A stretch of DNA of 64,000 bases from Polyangiales bacterium. GTDB taxonomy: Bacteria; Myxococcota_A; Polyangia; Polyangiales; Polyangiaceae. Location: assembly GCA_038231275.1 (NCBI GenBank), contig JBBRLQ010000001.1, positions 288,001 through 352,000 of the forward strand, in the 5' to 3' direction. The translations under genes and the position numbers were made by a program. Shown piece after piece: positions 13,815-19,608 of this stretch. Under the pieces are notes generated by a model. That model saw nothing but the letters and a program-made list of their open reading frames with translations, was not told the DNA's origin and did no database searches. Position 1 is the stretch's first letter; each line of letters begins with the position of its first letter.

Positions 13815-15368
13815 ATGATCCGAAAAGGCGCGTGGGGTCTGTGGCTTGGGCTCGTGGCGGCGGGGCTCGCCGCGGCGTGCGGAGGGGACGCGGCGCCGGG
13901 GACGAAGAGCGCGGTCGACGTGCAGTCGTCCAAGATGGGCGAGACGTTCGCCGGGCAGAACCGCTGCAACCCGAAGAACCACGAGCGCCCCTTCATCATC
14001 GAGTGGGACGCGACGGACATGTCGAGCTTCGAGTCGCGCGCCGCGAACGACGTCGTCTTCGTGCGCTACCAAGGCTGCGACCTCATCGTGATCGACTCGT
14101 GCGCGGACGAGTCGGTACGCGGGACCTACGGCTCCTACAAGCCGGTCGAGTGGACGAGCGGCTCGGTCGAGTCGCTCGACATCGGCAACGAGGCCGAGCT
14201 CTACACGAAGCTGCCGCTCGGCGCGGGCTCGCTCGGTGGACGCGTGCACGGCGGCGAGAAGTTCCACATGGAGTACTTCGTCAGCGGCACGCGCACGGCA
14301 ACGCGCGACGCCGTCCACCGCGCGGATCTCGCGAAGCGTCCCGGCTGCAAGAACGCGACGCACTACGTGTACGCGTACAACCTCGGCGCCTTCGCGCTTG
14401 GTGCGCAGTCGAACCTCAACGCGCAGGCCGGCGCCACCGTGTGGGGCGTGGGAGCCGGTGGCGCGCGCTCCTCGTCGTCGAAGGCCGACAAGCGCGGCGG
14501 CGACATCGGGACGTGCCGCGGCGAGTCCGCGAAAGAGATGCAGACGTGCAAAGTCCCGATTCGCCTCACGCTGCGCGAAATCGCCGGCGACGAGAGCGCC
14601 GACGCCAAGGACGCGCGCGCGCCGGAGACCGCGGAGGCCAAGAACCTCGCCGGGCGCCTCCAAGCCACCACCGATCGCGAGAAGCAGGCCGAAGAGCACG
14701 CCCGCGCGGCGGAGACCAGGATCGGCGCGCGCGACGGCAAGAGCTGCGTCGCCGAGCTGGACGAGCACGACAAGCTCGATCCGCGGCCGAGCGGTCTGTC
14801 GACGAGCACCGGTTCGTACCTCGCTGCGAACCGCGCGCGCTGCTTGATGCTCGCGGGGCAGTGCCCGGCCGGCAAGGATCTGTTCCGCAAGGCCCTCGAG
14901 AAGAGCGCCGCCGCCGGCACGACCGGGCCCGCCGAGCTCGATCGCAAGACCGACGAGGCCGCGACGCTCTATTGCCAGGGCGGCACGATGAGCCCGCGCG
15001 ATCAGTACTTGAAGGCCGGAGCCGATCTCGAGGTCGCCGCATACAAGGAGAGGAAGGACGTCGCCTACTGCAAGGCCGCCTACGAGACCGCCAAGCGCCT
15101 CGTCTCGACCGTGAAGCCAAAGGACGATGACGATCCGGTGAAATTCGTCTTCGCGAACGTGCGCACCAACGCGCCGAAGTGCTTCGCGCGCGCCGGCGAC
15201 TGCGCCCAGGCGCTCGCCGTCTACAAAGAGGCGTGGGTGCTGGATCCGCTGATGTCGGAGGCCTCGAAGAAGCTGAACGAGCAGGGCCTGAAGGTCGGCT
15301 TCGACGGCGTCGTCGGCGGCAACGGCGTGTGCCCCAAGACCGCGAAGAAAGAAGCCTGGGAGAAGTAA
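13815..15368 (+). CDS. Cys-rich lipoprotein of unknown function with helical (TPR-like) C-terminal half
   Basis: Lipobox AAAC after MIRKGAWGLWLGLVAAGL; GC3-rich codon usage. Confidence 0.8.
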   Translation: MIRKGAWGLWLGLVAAGLAAACGGDAAPGTKSAVDVQSSKMGETFAGQNRCNPKNHERPFIIEWDATDMSSFESRAANDVVFVRYQGCDLIVIDSCADESVRGTYGSYKPVEWTSGSVESLDIGNEAELYTKLPLGAGSLGGRVHGGEKFHMEYFVSGTRTATRDAVHRADLAKRPGCKNATHYVYAYNLGAFALGAQSNLNAQAGATVWGVGAGGARSSSSKADKRGGDIGTCRGESAKEMQTCKVPIRLTLREIAGDESADAKDARAPETAEAKNLAGRLQATTDREKQAEEHARAAETRIGARDGKSCVAELDEHDKLDPRPSGLSTSTGSYLAANRARCLMLAGQCPAGKDLFRKALEKSAAAGTTGPAELDRKTDEAATLYCQGGTMSPRDQYLKAGADLEVAAYKERKDVAYCKAAYETAKRLVSTVKPKDDDDPVKFVFANVRTNAPKCFARAGDCAQALAVYKEAWVLDPLMSEASKKLNEQGLKVGFDGVVGGNGVCPKTAKKEAWEK

Positions 15369-15462
15369 TCGAGAAGTAGCGGCCTGAGGGCGCCCTCGCC
15401 GCGAACGAGAAAGCGCGCAACTTCCGCGCGCCGGTGTCGACAGGGGATCGAGGAGACCCCCC

Positions 15463-16860
15463 ATGATCGGCACCGACGGTCCCAGAGCCCTTTCTACGCG
15501 CGAAAAGCTCGAGTCACGCGACGACGATCCGGCCGCGGTTCGCAGGCCCCCCGCGCGCTGCGCCGCGCCGGAGCCCGATTGGTCGTCGGTGCCCACGGAC
15601 TGGCACGCGCCCATGCCGCTCCCGAGCCCGACGCCGCCTCCGCCCGCGCAGCCCGCCGCGGCGCCCCCGCGTGATGGCACGTCGGGCCTGCCGTCGCTCC
15701 CGGCGTCGCCCGACGCCGTTCGCCGCACGCAGCTCGCGTGGCTCGCCAAGGATCTCCCCCACGTCGATCGCTCCGATCCGGCGCACGTCGTCGCCGCAGG
15801 TGACTACCGACTCCACGCGCAGCTCCAGAAGCAAGCGGGCGGCGGCGATGCGGTGGCGTATTGGACCGCGCACAACGTCCTCACGAAACGGACCGAGTTC
15901 GTGGTGGCGCCGGCGGCGCTGGAGGACTTCACGAAGAACGCGCATGTGTACGTCGATGCCGCGGCGCGCAGCGCGAGCAACGGTGTCCCCACGCATGGCT
16001 ACGAGATCGAGAGCCAACGCGTCGTCGAGGCGCTCATGAACGAAGGCGTCGGCGCGGCGCTCGGTCACCTCGGGCAGGCGTGGGGCGCGGCCGTCCGCGA
16101 TCCGCAGTGGTGGGGAAAGACGGCGCTCGACGTCGTCGCGGGAGCGGGCCCCGCGGTGTCGGCGCGCGGTGCCGGCGCAGCGGCGCTCGCCACGGAGGCG
16201 ACACCGCTGATCGACGAGGCGACCCAGCTCGCCGCTGCGCGCGCCGCGAAAGGAGTCCTGTCGACGGCGCGCGCCGCCGAGCCAGAGATCACCGCCACTG
16301 TGCGCGCCGCGGCCGAGGCGAAGGGCGGCACGATGGTCGGCCTCGAGGCTCGCCTCAAAACGGAGGGCTCGCTGACGCGCAAGATCGCGACGGACGCCCG
16401 AGAGGCCACGAAGGTCGATGCGGCAGCAGAGGGCGTGAAAGACGCCGTTCGCTACACGGCGAGCTACGACAGCGCCCGCTACGGCCAGGGCTTTCGCTCC
16501 GTCGTGAAGGAGCTCGAGGCCCAAGGTTACGAGGTCAAGATGCTGAAGAACACGTGGGCCACCGACGGGTACCGCGGCGTCAACACGAGCTTGCGCTCCC
16601 CGTCCGGCCAGGTCTTCGAGCTCCAGTTCCACACTCCCGAGAGCTTCGCCGCCAAGACGGAGGGACACCTCCTCTACGAAGAGTGGCGCGCGCCCGGGAC
16701 GTCGCTCGAGCGCCGCACCGCGCTCGAGGCGGAGATGAGCGAGCGCTTCCGGATGGTGCCCATCCCTCCCGGCGCCATCGACGTCGGTCTCCTCGAGACG
16801 CTCGCCCGTAAGGGCATCGGCATCATCGTTCCCGCCACCCACCGAGAGGCCACGCCATGA
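15463..16860 (+). CDS. Polymorphic-toxin-like protein with C-terminal RelA/SpoT-like alarmone synthetase domain (Apk/Tas1-like)
   Basis: SD GAGGAG; motifs RLKTEGSLTRK, KDAVRYT, GYRGVN, FELQFHTPES, HLLYEEWR; Pro-rich and Ala-rich N-terminal region. Confidence 0.85.
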   Translation: MIGTDGPRALSTREKLESRDDDPAAVRRPPARCAAPEPDWSSVPTDWHAPMPLPSPTPPPPAQPAAAPPRDGTSGLPSLPASPDAVRRTQLAWLAKDLPHVDRSDPAHVVAAGDYRLHAQLQKQAGGGDAVAYWTAHNVLTKRTEFVVAPAALEDFTKNAHVYVDAAARSASNGVPTHGYEIESQRVVEALMNEGVGAALGHLGQAWGAAVRDPQWWGKTALDVVAGAGPAVSARGAGAAALATEATPLIDEATQLAAARAAKGVLSTARAAEPEITATVRAAAEAKGGTMVGLEARLKTEGSLTRKIATDAREATKVDAAAEGVKDAVRYTASYDSARYGQGFRSVVKELEAQGYEVKMLKNTWATDGYRGVNTSLRSPSGQVFELQFHTPESFAAKTEGHLLYEEWRAPGTSLERRTALEAEMSERFRMVPIPPGAIDVGLLETLARKGIGIIVPATHREATP

Positions 16861-17090
16861 GCCAGATGAGATTTTTCGTGCGCAGCGACGACGGCAAGCC
16901 CTTCGCCGTCATACGGTTTCGCGAGCGGGACGACGGTCTCCGGACTTCGGACATCTGGCGCGAAGATCATTGGGAGGAAAATACGTAATACATTGGCAAG
17001 TACCACTTCGTCGGGTTCGATTCGGACACGGACGAAGTGAGCGAACGGCAGGCCAAGCGGGCCATCCTTGCCATGGGGGAATCGCGATGA
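16857..17090 (+). pseudogene. Small immunity-like gene (77 codons) interrupted by in-frame TAA at 16986-16988
   Basis: ATGA overlaps with both neighbours in one frame; MSQMRFFVRSDDGKPFAVIRFRERDDGLRTSDIWREDHWEENT*YIGKYHFVGFDSDTDEVSERQAKRAILAMGESR. Confidence 0.8.
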
Positions 17091-17608
17091 CCGAAGAGTT
17101 TTCACCGAAGGACACCCCGGAAACCGAGGCCCGCCGCTTCGCCGTCGAGGCGCACGCCGATCAGCGCTACGGCGACGCTCCGTACGTGACGCACCTCGGC
17201 GCGGTGCGCAGCGTCCTCGCCGACTTCGGGCACGGCGGCCCGCTCGCGATCGCGGCGTGGCTGCACGACACCGTCGAGGACACCAAGGTGACGCGCGAGG
17301 ACGTCGAGTCGCGCTTCGGCGCCGAAGTGGCGGCGCTCGTCTGGGCGGTGACGGGCACCGGCGCGACGCGCGAGGAGCGGAACCACAGCGCGTACGCGAA
17401 GATTCAGGCGCACCCCGCGGCGGCGACCCTGAAGCTCGCGGATCGCGTCGCCAACGTCGAAGCGTCGCGCACAGTGCCGGCGAAGCTCGCGAAGTACCGC
17501 GCCGAGTGGGAGTCGTTCCACGGCCACCTCAAGGGCCTCGGCGACGCGCGCATGTGGGCACGCCTCGCGCGCGGGCTCGGCGTGGAGGGCGACGTTCAGG
17601 GAGCGTGA
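17087..17608 (+). CDS. HD-domain small alarmone hydrolase (Mesh1/Aph1-like)
   Basis: AHADQRYGDAPYVTH, AWLHDTVEDT, KLADRVAN; stand-alone 173 aa. Confidence 0.9.
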   Translation: MTEEFSPKDTPETEARRFAVEAHADQRYGDAPYVTHLGAVRSVLADFGHGGPLAIAAWLHDTVEDTKVTREDVESRFGAEVAALVWAVTGTGATREERNHSAYAKIQAHPAAATLKLADRVANVEASRTVPAKLAKYRAEWESFHGHLKGLGDARMWARLARGLGVEGDVQGA

Positions 17609-19608
17609 ACCGCCGGCGCGCCCGCGCCATACCCGCGGGCGAAGTCGATCGCCATCGCGTGAACCTTCTCGATCGGCTCGTCGAACCGCACCGGCACGTC
17701 GAGCCTCTGCGCCGGCGGGAAGCCTTGCGCGTACGCCGCGTCGCCTTCGAACGTCGTGAACATCGTGTGGGTCGCGCGTTCGATTTGCACGACGGCGCGG
17801 ACCGGCGCGCCGGGGAGCGGCGTGAACGGCGCGCCGGCGGCCGGCAGCGACGCGAAGCGCAGCGGCCGCGTGAAGCCAGAGATGGTCACCTCCGTGGCGC
17901 CCGCGATCGCCGCGAGGAGCTCGCCTCCCTGATTCGGGATCAGCTCATCGGAGTACGCCTGCAAAAAGAGGACGGACTTCGCATTGCCGCTCGACGTCTG
18001 CGCGAGGTGCGGCGCAAACGCTGCCGGCTCGCCCGGCTCGAGGATCGCTTGCATCAGCGACACCGATCGCTGCGCCTCCGCGGGCAACGCCGTCGGATTC
18101 GAGAAATCGAGCGCCGCGTCGAACGTCGGGCGTACGAAGAGACCGGCCACCGGCTGGAAGAACGGCGAGTCCGAGAAGATCGGCAAGAAAACTCCCGCGC
18201 CGCCGACGCTGAGCACCGCCGCGCCGAGATCCGGCGAAACCGCGAGCGTCGATGCGCCGAGGACGGATCCGAACGACTCGCTCGTGTACACGAGACGTGA
18301 CGCGTCGAGGGACGGGTACGCCGCCGTGGTGTCGCCGCGCACGAGCAGTCGCACGAGCTCCGTCAGCTCGAAGACGGCTTGGCGCAGGCTGTCGCGGACG
18401 TAGCGACCGTCGAGCGGGCCGATGCCGTGCGCCGCGTCGCCGGCGAAGTTGAAGAAGAGGAAGGAGGCGCCGAGCTCGTCGAGATCGGCGAGCCCGTCCG
18501 GCGTGGGAGCGCCAGAAAAGTTGTGGACGCGATCTTTTGCGCTCGGGTTCCGGTTGCCGTGCCAGAGCGCGTCGATCCCGATCGTCGCGTAGCCCGCGCG
18601 CGCGTAGTCGTTCGCTACCGCCGCCACTTGCCCGCGACCGGCGTTGAGCCCGTGTTGGTAGATGAGCACGGGGACCTTCCCGGTCGCGCCGCGCGGCAGG
18701 GTGAGGAGAAACGGGATCGTCGTCGTCCCCTGCGCGATGGGCGCACCGGCGTCGTCGAGCCGAACGCGGCCGAGGACGTCGTGCGGCGCGTCGAGAAAGT
18801 AGGGCGCGTCGAAGGTGCCGAGGACGACCGAGGCGATGGCATCGTGCACGATCCCCTTGGGATCGCCCAGCCCTGGACGCGTCGTCCTTGGCTGGCCGAG
18901 GAGATCGTCCAGCTCCGCTTGCGTCGTCAGGCTCTTCGTCACCGCGGCGCGCGGCGGGGGAAGGCGGTCGGCCGCGGCGCGCATCGCGAAGAGGACGCGC
19001 GACGGCTGGCCGACGGTGAAGACGCTCGCGGCGCCGACCGCCATCGGATGCGCACGCAGGTAGTCGGCGAGTGGAGCGTATGCGGATGCGTACGGCCCGG
19101 CGCCATGGAGCGCGTCCGCCATCGCGCGGTCGGGCCGGACGGCTCGGTCGCCGACGATGCATGCGTACGTGTGTTGCTCGCGAAACACGGACGCGGGCGG
19201 CGCCAGGGCTACGAGCTCCTGCGTGGCGCCGCGGTAGAAGAGCCCCGTCGTCGCCGGGGTCGACACGGGATCGCTCAGGTCCACCAGCGTCGCCCGCTCC
19301 GCGAGAAGTCCCTCGGGCAACGAAGCCCCCTCGAGTGGGAAGAAGATCGACGTCCGCACCGGCGCGCCGTCGAGCTCGCTGAGGGACGCCGCCATCGTCG
19401 CGAGCGCGTCCTCCTTGCCGTCGAGCGGCACGCGATCGACGCGAAGGTGCCCTCCTTCGCGCAGGGCGTCGCTCGGCCACGGCGAGTCCGCGAACGAGCC
19501 TCCCAGGCGCGCGACGGGCCGGGCGTCGGCGGGCGCGTGGGTCGCGCACGCGGCGAGGAGCGCGAAGACGGGAAAGACGAGGACGGGGAAGGCGGCGCGG
19601 GCGGTCAT
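17596..19608 (-). CDS. Secreted alpha/beta-hydrolase lipoprotein (Pla-1/Cef-like lipase architecture)
   Basis: Lipobox LAAC; IYQHGL, IGIDALWHGNR, DSLRQAV, nucleophile elbow SESFG. Confidence 0.75.
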   Translation of the reverse strand: MTARAAFPVLVFPVFALLAACATHAPADARPVARLGGSFADSPWPSDALREGGHLRVDRVPLDGKEDALATMAASLSELDGAPVRTSIFFPLEGASLPEGLLAERATLVDLSDPVSTPATTGLFYRGATQELVALAPPASVFREQHTYACIVGDRAVRPDRAMADALHGAGPYASAYAPLADYLRAHPMAVGAASVFTVGQPSRVLFAMRAAADRLPPPRAAVTKSLTTQAELDDLLGQPRTTRPGLGDPKGIVHDAIASVVLGTFDAPYFLDAPHDVLGRVRLDDAGAPIAQGTTTIPFLLTLPRGATGKVPVLIYQHGLNAGRGQVAAVANDYARAGYATIGIDALWHGNRNPSAKDRVHNFSGAPTPDGLADLDELGASFLFFNFAGDAAHGIGPLDGRYVRDSLRQAVFELTELVRLLVRGDTTAAYPSLDASRLVYTSESFGSVLGASTLAVSPDLGAAVLSVGGAGVFLPIFSDSPFFQPVAGLFVRPTFDAALDFSNPTALPAEAQRSVSLMQAILEPGEPAAFAPHLAQTSSGNAKSVLFLQAYSDELIPNQGGELLAAIAGATEVTISGFTRPLRFASLPAAGAPFTPLPGAPVRAVVQIERATHTMFTTFEGDAAYAQGFPPAQRLDVPVRFDEPIEKVHAMAIDFARGYGAGAPAVHAP

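Follow-up and report, generated by a model that had tools for sequence, protein, structure and literature searches.

The window analyzed here is a stretch of 64,000 nucleotides from contig JBBRLQ010000001.1 of a Polyangiales genome (the source genome, G000), in which positions 15463 to 17608 hold three adjoining genes on the plus strand: a gene for a toxin-type alarmone synthetase (gene 1), a small immunity-type gene broken by a premature stop codon (gene 2), and a gene for an alarmone hydrolase (gene 3). This order was proposed by an initial annotation of the stretch and is supported by the present analysis, in which the locus is compared with its counterpart in a second genome of the same genus (G001). 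The features are:

15463–16860, plus strand: gene 1, open reading frame of 465 amino acids, polymorphic-toxin-type (leader, N-domain, and alarmone synthetase)
15463–15714, plus strand: leader of gene 1 (residues 1–84), hydrophilic, proline/alanine-rich, without predicted structure (AlphaFold2 predicted local distance difference test, pLDDT, below 50)
15715–16212, plus strand: N-domain of gene 1 (residues 85–250), an unnamed module defined by its HMMER family and without a Pfam match
16213–16797, plus strand: RelA/SpoT-type synthetase domain of the Apk/EAS clade (residues 251–445), assigned from PDB entry 8vx3, AlphaFold2, and Foldseek
16857–16988, plus strand: gene 2, first part, 43 codons, ending at a premature TAA (16986–16988) and aligning with residues 1–45 of the G001 protein
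16989–17090, plus strand: gene 2, second part, continuing the frame for 33 codons up to the TGA within the second ATGA; conserved with G001
17087–17608, plus strand: gene 3, small alarmone hydrolase of the SpoT/Mesh1 type, 173 amino acids, assigned from HD_4, TIGR00691, and the Rel and MESH1 structures in the PDB

Genes 1 and 2, and genes 2 and 3, meet in ATGA overlaps (16857–16860 and 17087–17090). The initial annotation described three genes joined by these two overlaps, with gene 2 as a small open reading frame; the overlaps exist, but the frame that links them is not open, since it runs for 43 codons to the TAA at 16986–16988 and then for another 33, and that description is therefore only partly confirmed. 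GAGGAG lies 8–13 nucleotides ahead of the gene 1 ATG. No sigma-70-like promoter was found in 15200–17800, and no RNA run containing the stretch was listed among the sequencing runs. Inspection of the translation by eye identified no hydrophobic signal-peptide stretch in gene 1, and Pfam assigned the protein to no family at E ≤ 0.1, PAAR and DUF4157 included.

The C-terminal domain of gene 1 is predicted to adopt the RelA/SpoT-homolog synthetase fold and to belong to the Apk/EAS clade. The five motifs by which the initial annotation recognized a RelA/SpoT-like synthetase are all present (RLKTEGSLTRK, 16351–16383; DAVRYT, 16441–16458; GYRGVN, 16567–16584; FELQFHT, 16615–16635; HLLYE, 16666–16680). 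In an alignment of 22 relatives the motif columns are invariant or at least 90% conserved, and 16 columns of the domain are invariant, among them D327, R330, N374, and E386. The best sequence match in the PDB is 8vx3 (SaEAS, or "SaSAS"), with E 2.4e-32 and 40–45% identity over gene 1 residues 266–439. AlphaFold2, given 22 sequences, modeled residues 250–450 with pLDDT above 90; for residues 1–250 there was no usable model (pLDDT below 50–60). A Foldseek search with the C-terminal domain returned SaEAS first (template modeling score 0.79, E 8e-16), followed by Tas1, SAS1, RelP, CapRel, and Rel; the similarity to 8vx3 is well outside what chance would give, and the enzymes with which the domain groups are toxins or exported, not SAS1 or RelP. 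The ATP-binding and catalytic residues given for SaEAS are D121, R124, K154, N169, E182, and Q184 (PMC12691689); D327, R330, N374, E386, and Q388 of gene 1 align with D121, R124, N169, E182, and Q184, and all are invariant or at least 90% conserved. A specific likeness to Tas1, as initially proposed, does not hold: Tas1 (PDB 6ox6) is matched distantly (E 9e-4, 23% identity), and the nearest relatives are SaEAS and the MuF-Apk2 domains (approximately 40% identity), including the MuF toxin domains of pneumococcal phages (39–40%).

The front ends to which this domain is joined are diverse. Among 22 proteins retrieved by a word-indexed search, two cover the whole of gene 1 (its own protein and the G001 ortholog), and the remaining 20 share only the C-terminal 36–48% of gene 1, behind other front ends that include MuF (four proteins), DUF6507, a phage protease domain, and an ADP-ribosylating toxin domain (one protein each). 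Among phage records, 128 match the domain (35 from Streptococcus and 84 from Ralstonia). In NCBIfam, the only match of gene 1 is to the final ~200 positions of the very large XopAD/skwp effector models; these models end in the same synthetase domain, which also has relatives in the 84 Ralstonia phage records. The product cannot be read from the motifs, because the nearest characterized relatives differ: SaEAS is reported to make (p)ppGpp as well as (p)ppApp (PMC12691689), and Apk2 to make (p)ppApp only (PMC10083569, PMC12226406). Synthesis of (p)ppApp would be the safer guess for gene 1. The G001 ortholog is 75% identical, and the ratio of nonsynonymous to synonymous substitution rates (dN/dS) against it is 0.22 for gene 1 and 0.16 for the synthetase domain; the gene for the putative toxin is intact, and these values indicate purifying selection.

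The N-domain that precedes the synthetase is found with many other toxin heads. An HMMER search with residues 85–265 retrieved 114 representative proteins at E ≤ 1e-3 (29 at E ≤ 1e-10), of which 99 were scanned with Pfam together with the protein of the window (100 proteins in total; 15 were left out for size). In 31 of the 100, eCIS_core (formerly DUF4157) is placed ahead of the N-domain. Other families in the scanned set include Gln_amidase (five proteins) and RNAse_A_bac (three), with single occurrences of Ntox17, PT-HINT, AHH, Tox-REase-3, TNT, Ntox16, and a few others. The 22 closest N-domain proteins share a plan of hydrophilic leader, "LPAAPDA..G" stretch, N-domain ending in "DP.WW", and variable head, and the leader of gene 1 aligns with comparable leaders in the family. 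One of these 22, P0038 (a cluster of eight members, all metagenomic), bears the same synthetase head; the family as a whole comes almost entirely from metagenomes. Because the N-domain is combined with many heads, it would represent a shared carrier module of a polymorphic-toxin family without a Pfam model.

The module was found in two of the 401 genomes of a phylum sample, with the source genome counted. A second myxobacterial N-domain toxin (genome G342, L108:7454–9246) is 421 amino acids long; its head resembles TNT weakly, and a downstream gene of 175 amino acids overlaps the toxin gene. A word-indexed protein search with the N-domain retrieved only itself and the G001 protein, and in the ESM Atlas, where names suggestive of toxins were among the matches, the best score (0.82) is below the meaningful level. 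No description of the N-domain was found in the literature searched, outside the coverage of which lie the supplementary lists of 1,369 Apk1 homologs and of Aph1 homologs; the string "myxo" is absent from the main text of PMC12691689.

Gene 2 is intact in G001, where the gene 1 ortholog is followed, across an ATGA overlap, by a gene of 85 codons. The TAA at codon 44 of the window's gene aligns with the G001 codon GAT for Asp46; TAA serves as an ordinary stop in the source genome, because the gene upstream of gene 1 also ends in it, and the second part of gene 2 is probably not translated. Relative to G001, 15 codons before the stop are identical, 11 are synonymous, and 17 are changed, compared with 10, 9, and 14 after it, and dN/dS is 0.21 on both sides. 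This like pattern of change before and after the stop suggests that the TAA is recent. Third-position G+C in gene 2 is 0.74–0.79, compared with 0.93 in the G001 gene and 0.82–0.90 in neighboring genes. A contig from a separately assembled run (X1) shows no differences from the window over 16300–17600; because X1 may be the source sample, this identity is not independent, and contigs also hide minority alleles. Pfam identified nothing in either part of gene 2 or in nine members of the immunity family described below, a word-indexed protein search with the G001 gene retrieved only itself, and gene 2 orthologs were not found on metagenome contigs when these were scanned with two degenerate patterns.

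Membership of gene 2 in a wider immunity family is inferred from a profile built on 26 small open reading frames just downstream of related toxins, none of them from this genus. The toxins were drawn from 79 loci that were fetched with the synthetase domain from the best 80 of 233 relatives; in these loci a small open reading frame usually starts at the toxin stop. Tested against 5363 open reading frames, the profile matches gene 2 of the window with X in place of the stop (E 1.4e-7), its first 43 residues alone (E 0.0047), and the G001 gene (E 1.2e-4), and at E ≤ 1e-5 a match is present in 64 of the 79 loci, 38 of which come in addition to the 26 that supplied the seeds. Also matched is the 69-residue gene that follows the MuF toxin of Streptococcus phage IPP46 (E 4.2e-6, rescored with that gene added), which is taken as iapK by position only, since iapK is reported to lie directly after the toxin in apk2-iapK-aph1 clusters (PMC12226406). 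The profile shared with this gene indicates that gene 2 is an IapK-type immunity gene. In a profile search of the PDB, no sequence, Tis1 included, was matched by the gene 2 family below E 0.1, and the best fold match has E 0.47. In Streptomyces loci L028–L045, the genes after the toxin encode proteins of ~220–270 amino acids with a C-terminal part that matches the immunity profile (E 1e-13 to 1e-17); a published survey, for its part, describes many Streptomyces EAS genes as having no immunity gene.

Structural modeling supports binding of the gene 2 protein to the synthetase. AlphaFold2 modeled the G001 gene 2 protein at pLDDT 81, and its complex with the G001 synthetase (residues 250–461, with alignment) scored 0.63, against 0.00 for the best of three controls. 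Of 80 solved complexes, 58 attain the mark used for such scores, as do 2 of 110 mismatched pairs; these counts hold only roughly for a model made with our own alignment. The runs agree in at least 77% of contacts, and partner pLDDT is at least 78. The modeled interface covers 8 of the 16 invariant residues (K303, D323, R326, G368, N370, E382, K394, and H398 in G001 numbering), so that the partner would cover the active site, an arrangement already published for Tis1 and IapK. Among the 25 lowest-error contacts, 24 use partner residues 46–55; in the window's gene these positions coincide with the stop codon or lie beyond it, and the 43-residue product would accordingly lack them.

Gene 3 encodes an intact, single-domain hydrolase of the HD type, as initially annotated, with matches to HD_4 in Pfam (E 1.2e-13) and to the hydrolase part of TIGR00691 (spoT_relA, E 7e-18); THL, LHDTVED, and KLADR are present, and the metal-binding and catalytic residues H..HD..ED..D are kept. 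Its assignment as Aph1-type does not stand: in the PDB, the hydrolase domains of Rel and MESH1 are matched at ~1e-12, compared with E 0.018 for the "(p)ppApp hydrolase" 7smg, and gene 3 is ~31% identical to the prophage Aph1-type protein, to which other toxin-linked hydrolases are 46–50% identical. The signature residues given for Aph1 are D24, R96, D116, R119, K133, and Y134 (PMC10083569); gene 3 carries Arg at the position of the guanine-stacking Arg of Rel, as placed by the PDB alignment, a position that may be equivalent to D24. The source genome encodes a paralog on contig 17, with orthologs in G001 and in G002 that are 84–90% identical to the contig 17 copy. Gene 3 is 66% identical to all three of these genus-wide hydrolases and branches outside them, and would thus be an older or faster-evolving paralog of the genus's own hydrolase.

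The occurrence of a hydrolase gene beside this type of toxin is variable. There is no gene 3 at the cassette locus of G001, where convergent genes of another kind follow gene 2. These (L016:7193–8583) comprise an HD-domain gene of a type other than the alarmone hydrolases (PF01966) and, overlapping it, a nucleotidyltransferase-like gene with a long Asp-Ser repeat at its end. The three-gene linkage proposed initially is thus retained in the relative for genes 1 and 2 and not for gene 3. An HD gene flanks 6 of the 79 related loci; three are Aph1-like (46–50% identity to the phage protein), and three, all in Bacteroidota, are gene 3-like (30–39% identity to gene 3). Two of the Bacteroidota loci, both from Flavobacteriaceae (L064:5580–6326 and L069:5536–6306), encode a single protein (248 or 256 amino acids) in which a small immunity-type part is joined to the hydrolase; profile A5 scores the fused L069 protein at E 0.011 (probability 4%). 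Both fusions directly follow a signal-peptide-bearing synthetase toxin, and in Apibacter (L062) the two parts are separate overlapping genes. Low-depth contigs of a second study span the junction of genes 2 and 3; those of X2 and X3, which may be a single data set, do so at 94% identity, and that of X4 at 86%.

The layout, initially taken to be undescribed, has published counterparts in the "bicistronic immunity" of Apk2 (PMC10083569) and in the three-gene FaRel operon (PMC7229694). The Apk2-IapK-Aph1 systems of temperate phages, with MuF toxins (Bacteroides caccae, Streptococcus pneumoniae, Mannheimia, and Pasteurella; PMC10083569, PMC12226406), are described with the same order of toxin, small structural immunity protein, and HD hydrolase in overlapping genes; the synthetase domain of Apk2 is ~40% identical to that of gene 1, and one profile finds both gene 2 and the small prophage gene. 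The hydrolase is optional in both systems, being "sometimes absent" according to PMC10083569 and missing from the G001 locus. Unlike Apk2, the cassette of the window has no MuF domain or phage context, its hydrolase is SpoT/Mesh1-type and host-related, and its structural immunity is broken. SaEAS of Streptomyces albidoflavus (PDB 8vx3) is closest to the gene 1 synthetase in both sequence and fold and has the same active-site residues; it is described with a Sec signal peptide and without an immunity gene (PMC12691689), whereas gene 1 has a 250-residue front, two immunity-type genes beside it, and no obvious signal peptide. Tas1/Apk1-Tis1, a type VI secretion system (T6SS) effector and immunity pair of Pseudomonas aeruginosa (PDB 6ox6), is similar in size and plan, with a carrier, a C-terminal synthetase, and an immunity protein that occludes the active site, and the source genome has a T6SS elsewhere; however, Tas1 is only a distant match, gene 1 has no PAAR domain by Pfam, and gene 2 has no detectable likeness to Tis1. 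In FaRel/ATfaRel/AT2faRel of Cellulomonas marina (PMC7229694), the synthetase is likewise reported to be countered by a small protein and a small alarmone hydrolase in one operon; there the hydrolase lies upstream and the toxin is single-domain and cytoplasmic, in contrast to the carrier-type N-terminal half of gene 1.

In our view the locus is probably an apk-iapK-hydrolase cassette of the polymorphic-toxin type. Gene 1 would be a delivered toxin, with a disordered leader, the N-domain as shared carrier or trafficking module, and the alarmone synthetase at the C-terminus. In a target cell, the synthetase would move pyrophosphate from ATP to the 3′ OH of ATP or ADP, and possibly of GTP or GDP, thereby draining ATP and swamping the target with (p)ppApp, (p)ppGpp, or both. 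Gene 2 would encode a structural immunity protein of the IapK family, the intact form of which would cover the active site; here it is cut at codon 44, with most of the modeled contacts predicted to be lost. Gene 3 would provide enzymatic immunity of the SpoT/Mesh1 type, copied from the genus's own hydrolase, by splitting the product to ATP or ADP (GTP or GDP), and its presence may let the cell tolerate the loss of gene 2. For Apk2, either immunity alone is reported to give partial protection (PMC10083569).

Several points weigh against this interpretation. An active toxin beside a truncated structural immunity protein should harm the cell, and published hydrolases are reported to be orders of magnitude slower than these synthetases (PMC12691689), which makes compensation by gene 3 uncertain. 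Nor is the hydrolase a constant component, given that gene 3 is missing from the G001 locus, where genes 1 and 2 are present. Because gene 1 has no Pfam match, its family membership rests on PDB, NCBIfam, and profile matches, and because complexes like that of Tas1 and Tis1 have already been solved, part of the score of the complex model may reflect likeness. The TAA is seen in one independent DNA source only, which is possibly the genome's own sample. By Pfam, no secretion or phage gene was found within about 15 kb of the cassette; no gene for a contractile sheath was found in G000, G001, or G342; and in G342, which has an N-domain toxin, no T6SS sheath was found either.

The absence of a signal peptide from gene 1, and of secretion or phage genes from its surroundings, is also what would be expected if the protein were never exported and acted as an intracellular toxin–antitoxin or abortive-infection system of the FaRel type (FaRel has type II and type IV antitoxins), with an N-terminal part that responds to a cue, for instance a phage protein, by freeing the synthetase. 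The three-gene FaRel operon, with hydrolase and small-protein antitoxins, is a validated precedent as reported in PMC7229694, and CapRel, a toxSAS enzyme, is among the fold matches. We nevertheless regard this as rather unlikely, given that the N-domain also occurs in proteins with heads typical of delivered interbacterial toxins (CdiA-type RNase, AHH nuclease, Ntox, TNT, and pretoxin-HINT) and accompanied by DUF4157 in 31 of 100 proteins, that the nearest characterized relatives of the synthetase are exported or phage-carried enzymes, and that PADLOC returned no match for genes 1–3 or for the gene upstream of gene 1. A pair of housekeeping enzymes is hardly tenable. A small alarmone synthetase and a hydrolase in one operon could form a signaling pair controlling (p)ppGpp in the cell itself, without any toxin, and the genus keeps a conserved stand-alone hydrolase elsewhere; against this, the Pfam RelA_SpoT model misses gene 1, the domain falls with toxin and exported enzymes and not with SAS1 or RelP, and the synthetase sits behind a swappable carrier domain, next to an immunity-family gene, in a cassette present in only 2 of 40 relatives.

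The premature stop itself admits two further explanations. One, which we hold to be fairly improbable, is that the cassette is a decaying remnant, unused in this lineage, with the TAA as its first visible lesion and gene 1 silent or crippled in an unrecognizable way. The stop, the lowered third-position G+C of gene 2, and the rarity of the cassette (gene 1 is matched in 2 of 40 relatives, and strongly in G001 only) would fit such a course, but gene 1 is full length, has all 16 invariant residues, and evolves at dN/dS 0.16–0.22; gene 3 is intact with its H..HD..D residues; and the codon changes after the stop match those before it, so that the stop would be recent. The other, which seems distinctly unlikely, is that most cells do not carry the TAA, which would then be a minority allele or an error of assembly or consensus, and that gene 2 is intact within a complete apk-iapK-hydrolase unit. 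The assembly comprises 164 contigs and is 94% complete, depth at the site is ~9, the stretch is contained in a single run, possibly that of the source sample, and contigs drop rare variants. Yet the separately made X1 contig is identical over 16300–17600, and the GAT of G001 is two changes from TAA in a surrounding of A/T-ending codons, so that a lone miscall would not account for the stop.

The genes around the cassette give no indication of a mobile or secretory context. Pfam assigned the neighbors from 73 to 34351 to sugar-metabolism, porin, regulator, and kinase families or to nothing, with no PAAR, VgrG, Rhs, MuF, or phage gene among them, in agreement with the initial annotation; there is no tRNA gene in 1–40000, and the repeats near the cassette are short, G+C-rich, and of low identity, with no mobile-element ends flanking it. 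The surroundings are syntenic with G001, with identities of 90% for a LamB-type porin, 83% for an amylase, and 83% for a 688-amino-acid protein. The slot between the amylase gene and gene 1 is occupied in the window by a gene for a predicted lipoprotein of 517 amino acids (13815–15365; LAAAC lipobox) that has no Pfam, NCBIfam, or PADLOC family, and in G001 by a different gene (786 amino acids, PD40 repeat). A 9-bp G+C-rich hairpin (15412–15432) lies in the 94-nucleotide gap before gene 1 and is terminator-like on the minus strand only.

With regard to delivery, DUF4157 is associated with extracellular contractile injection systems (eCIS), whose toxins are described with an N-terminal DUF4157, a long linker, and a variable toxin head (PMC8213781, PMC11297309). 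The disordered hydrophilic leader of gene 1 fits the loading signal described for such toxins, as judged by eye only; unlike them, gene 1 has no DUF4157, Pfam detected none in the neighboring genes, and elsewhere in the source genome eCIS_core gives one weak match (22.9 bits). The contractile-sheath gene PF04984 was not found in G000, G001, or G342, in searches for which the positive control worked, and searches for the tube (PF06841) and terminator (PF14065) gave no match, with controls that were equally silent, so that they carry no weight. A T6SS is encoded on another contig in both G000 and G001; in G000 it forms a cluster on contig 25 at ~82–103 kb (TssC/VipB, gp25/TssE, and a second VipB-like gene) that is conserved in G001. 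A T6SS sheath gene was not found in G342. Because G342 has an N-domain toxin and neither sheath gene was found in it, delivery without a T6SS or a contractile particle is conceivable, and it is possible, though doubtful, that the N-domain and leader mark an undescribed route of toxin delivery of this kind and that the locus is also a natural case of immunity replacement, in which a copy of the host hydrolase was recruited and is now the sole protection after loss of the structural immunity.

What is new in this cassette is the N-domain, which is common to at least 113 other proteins with other toxin heads, together with the type of the hydrolase and the broken immunity gene. The known alarmone-synthetase toxins, a recently recognized class, ride on PAAR, MuF, LXG, XopAD, DUF4157, or Sec signals, whereas gene 1 rides on an unnamed domain, which points to an unstudied carrier module and perhaps to a delivery route. 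The IapK-type immunity family extends well beyond prophages, being present at 64 of 79 loci across many phyla. Furthermore, the two genomes of this genus together pose the question of whether enzymatic immunity suffices: G001 has the toxin and an intact blocker without a hydrolase, and the window has the toxin, a broken blocker, and a hydrolase.

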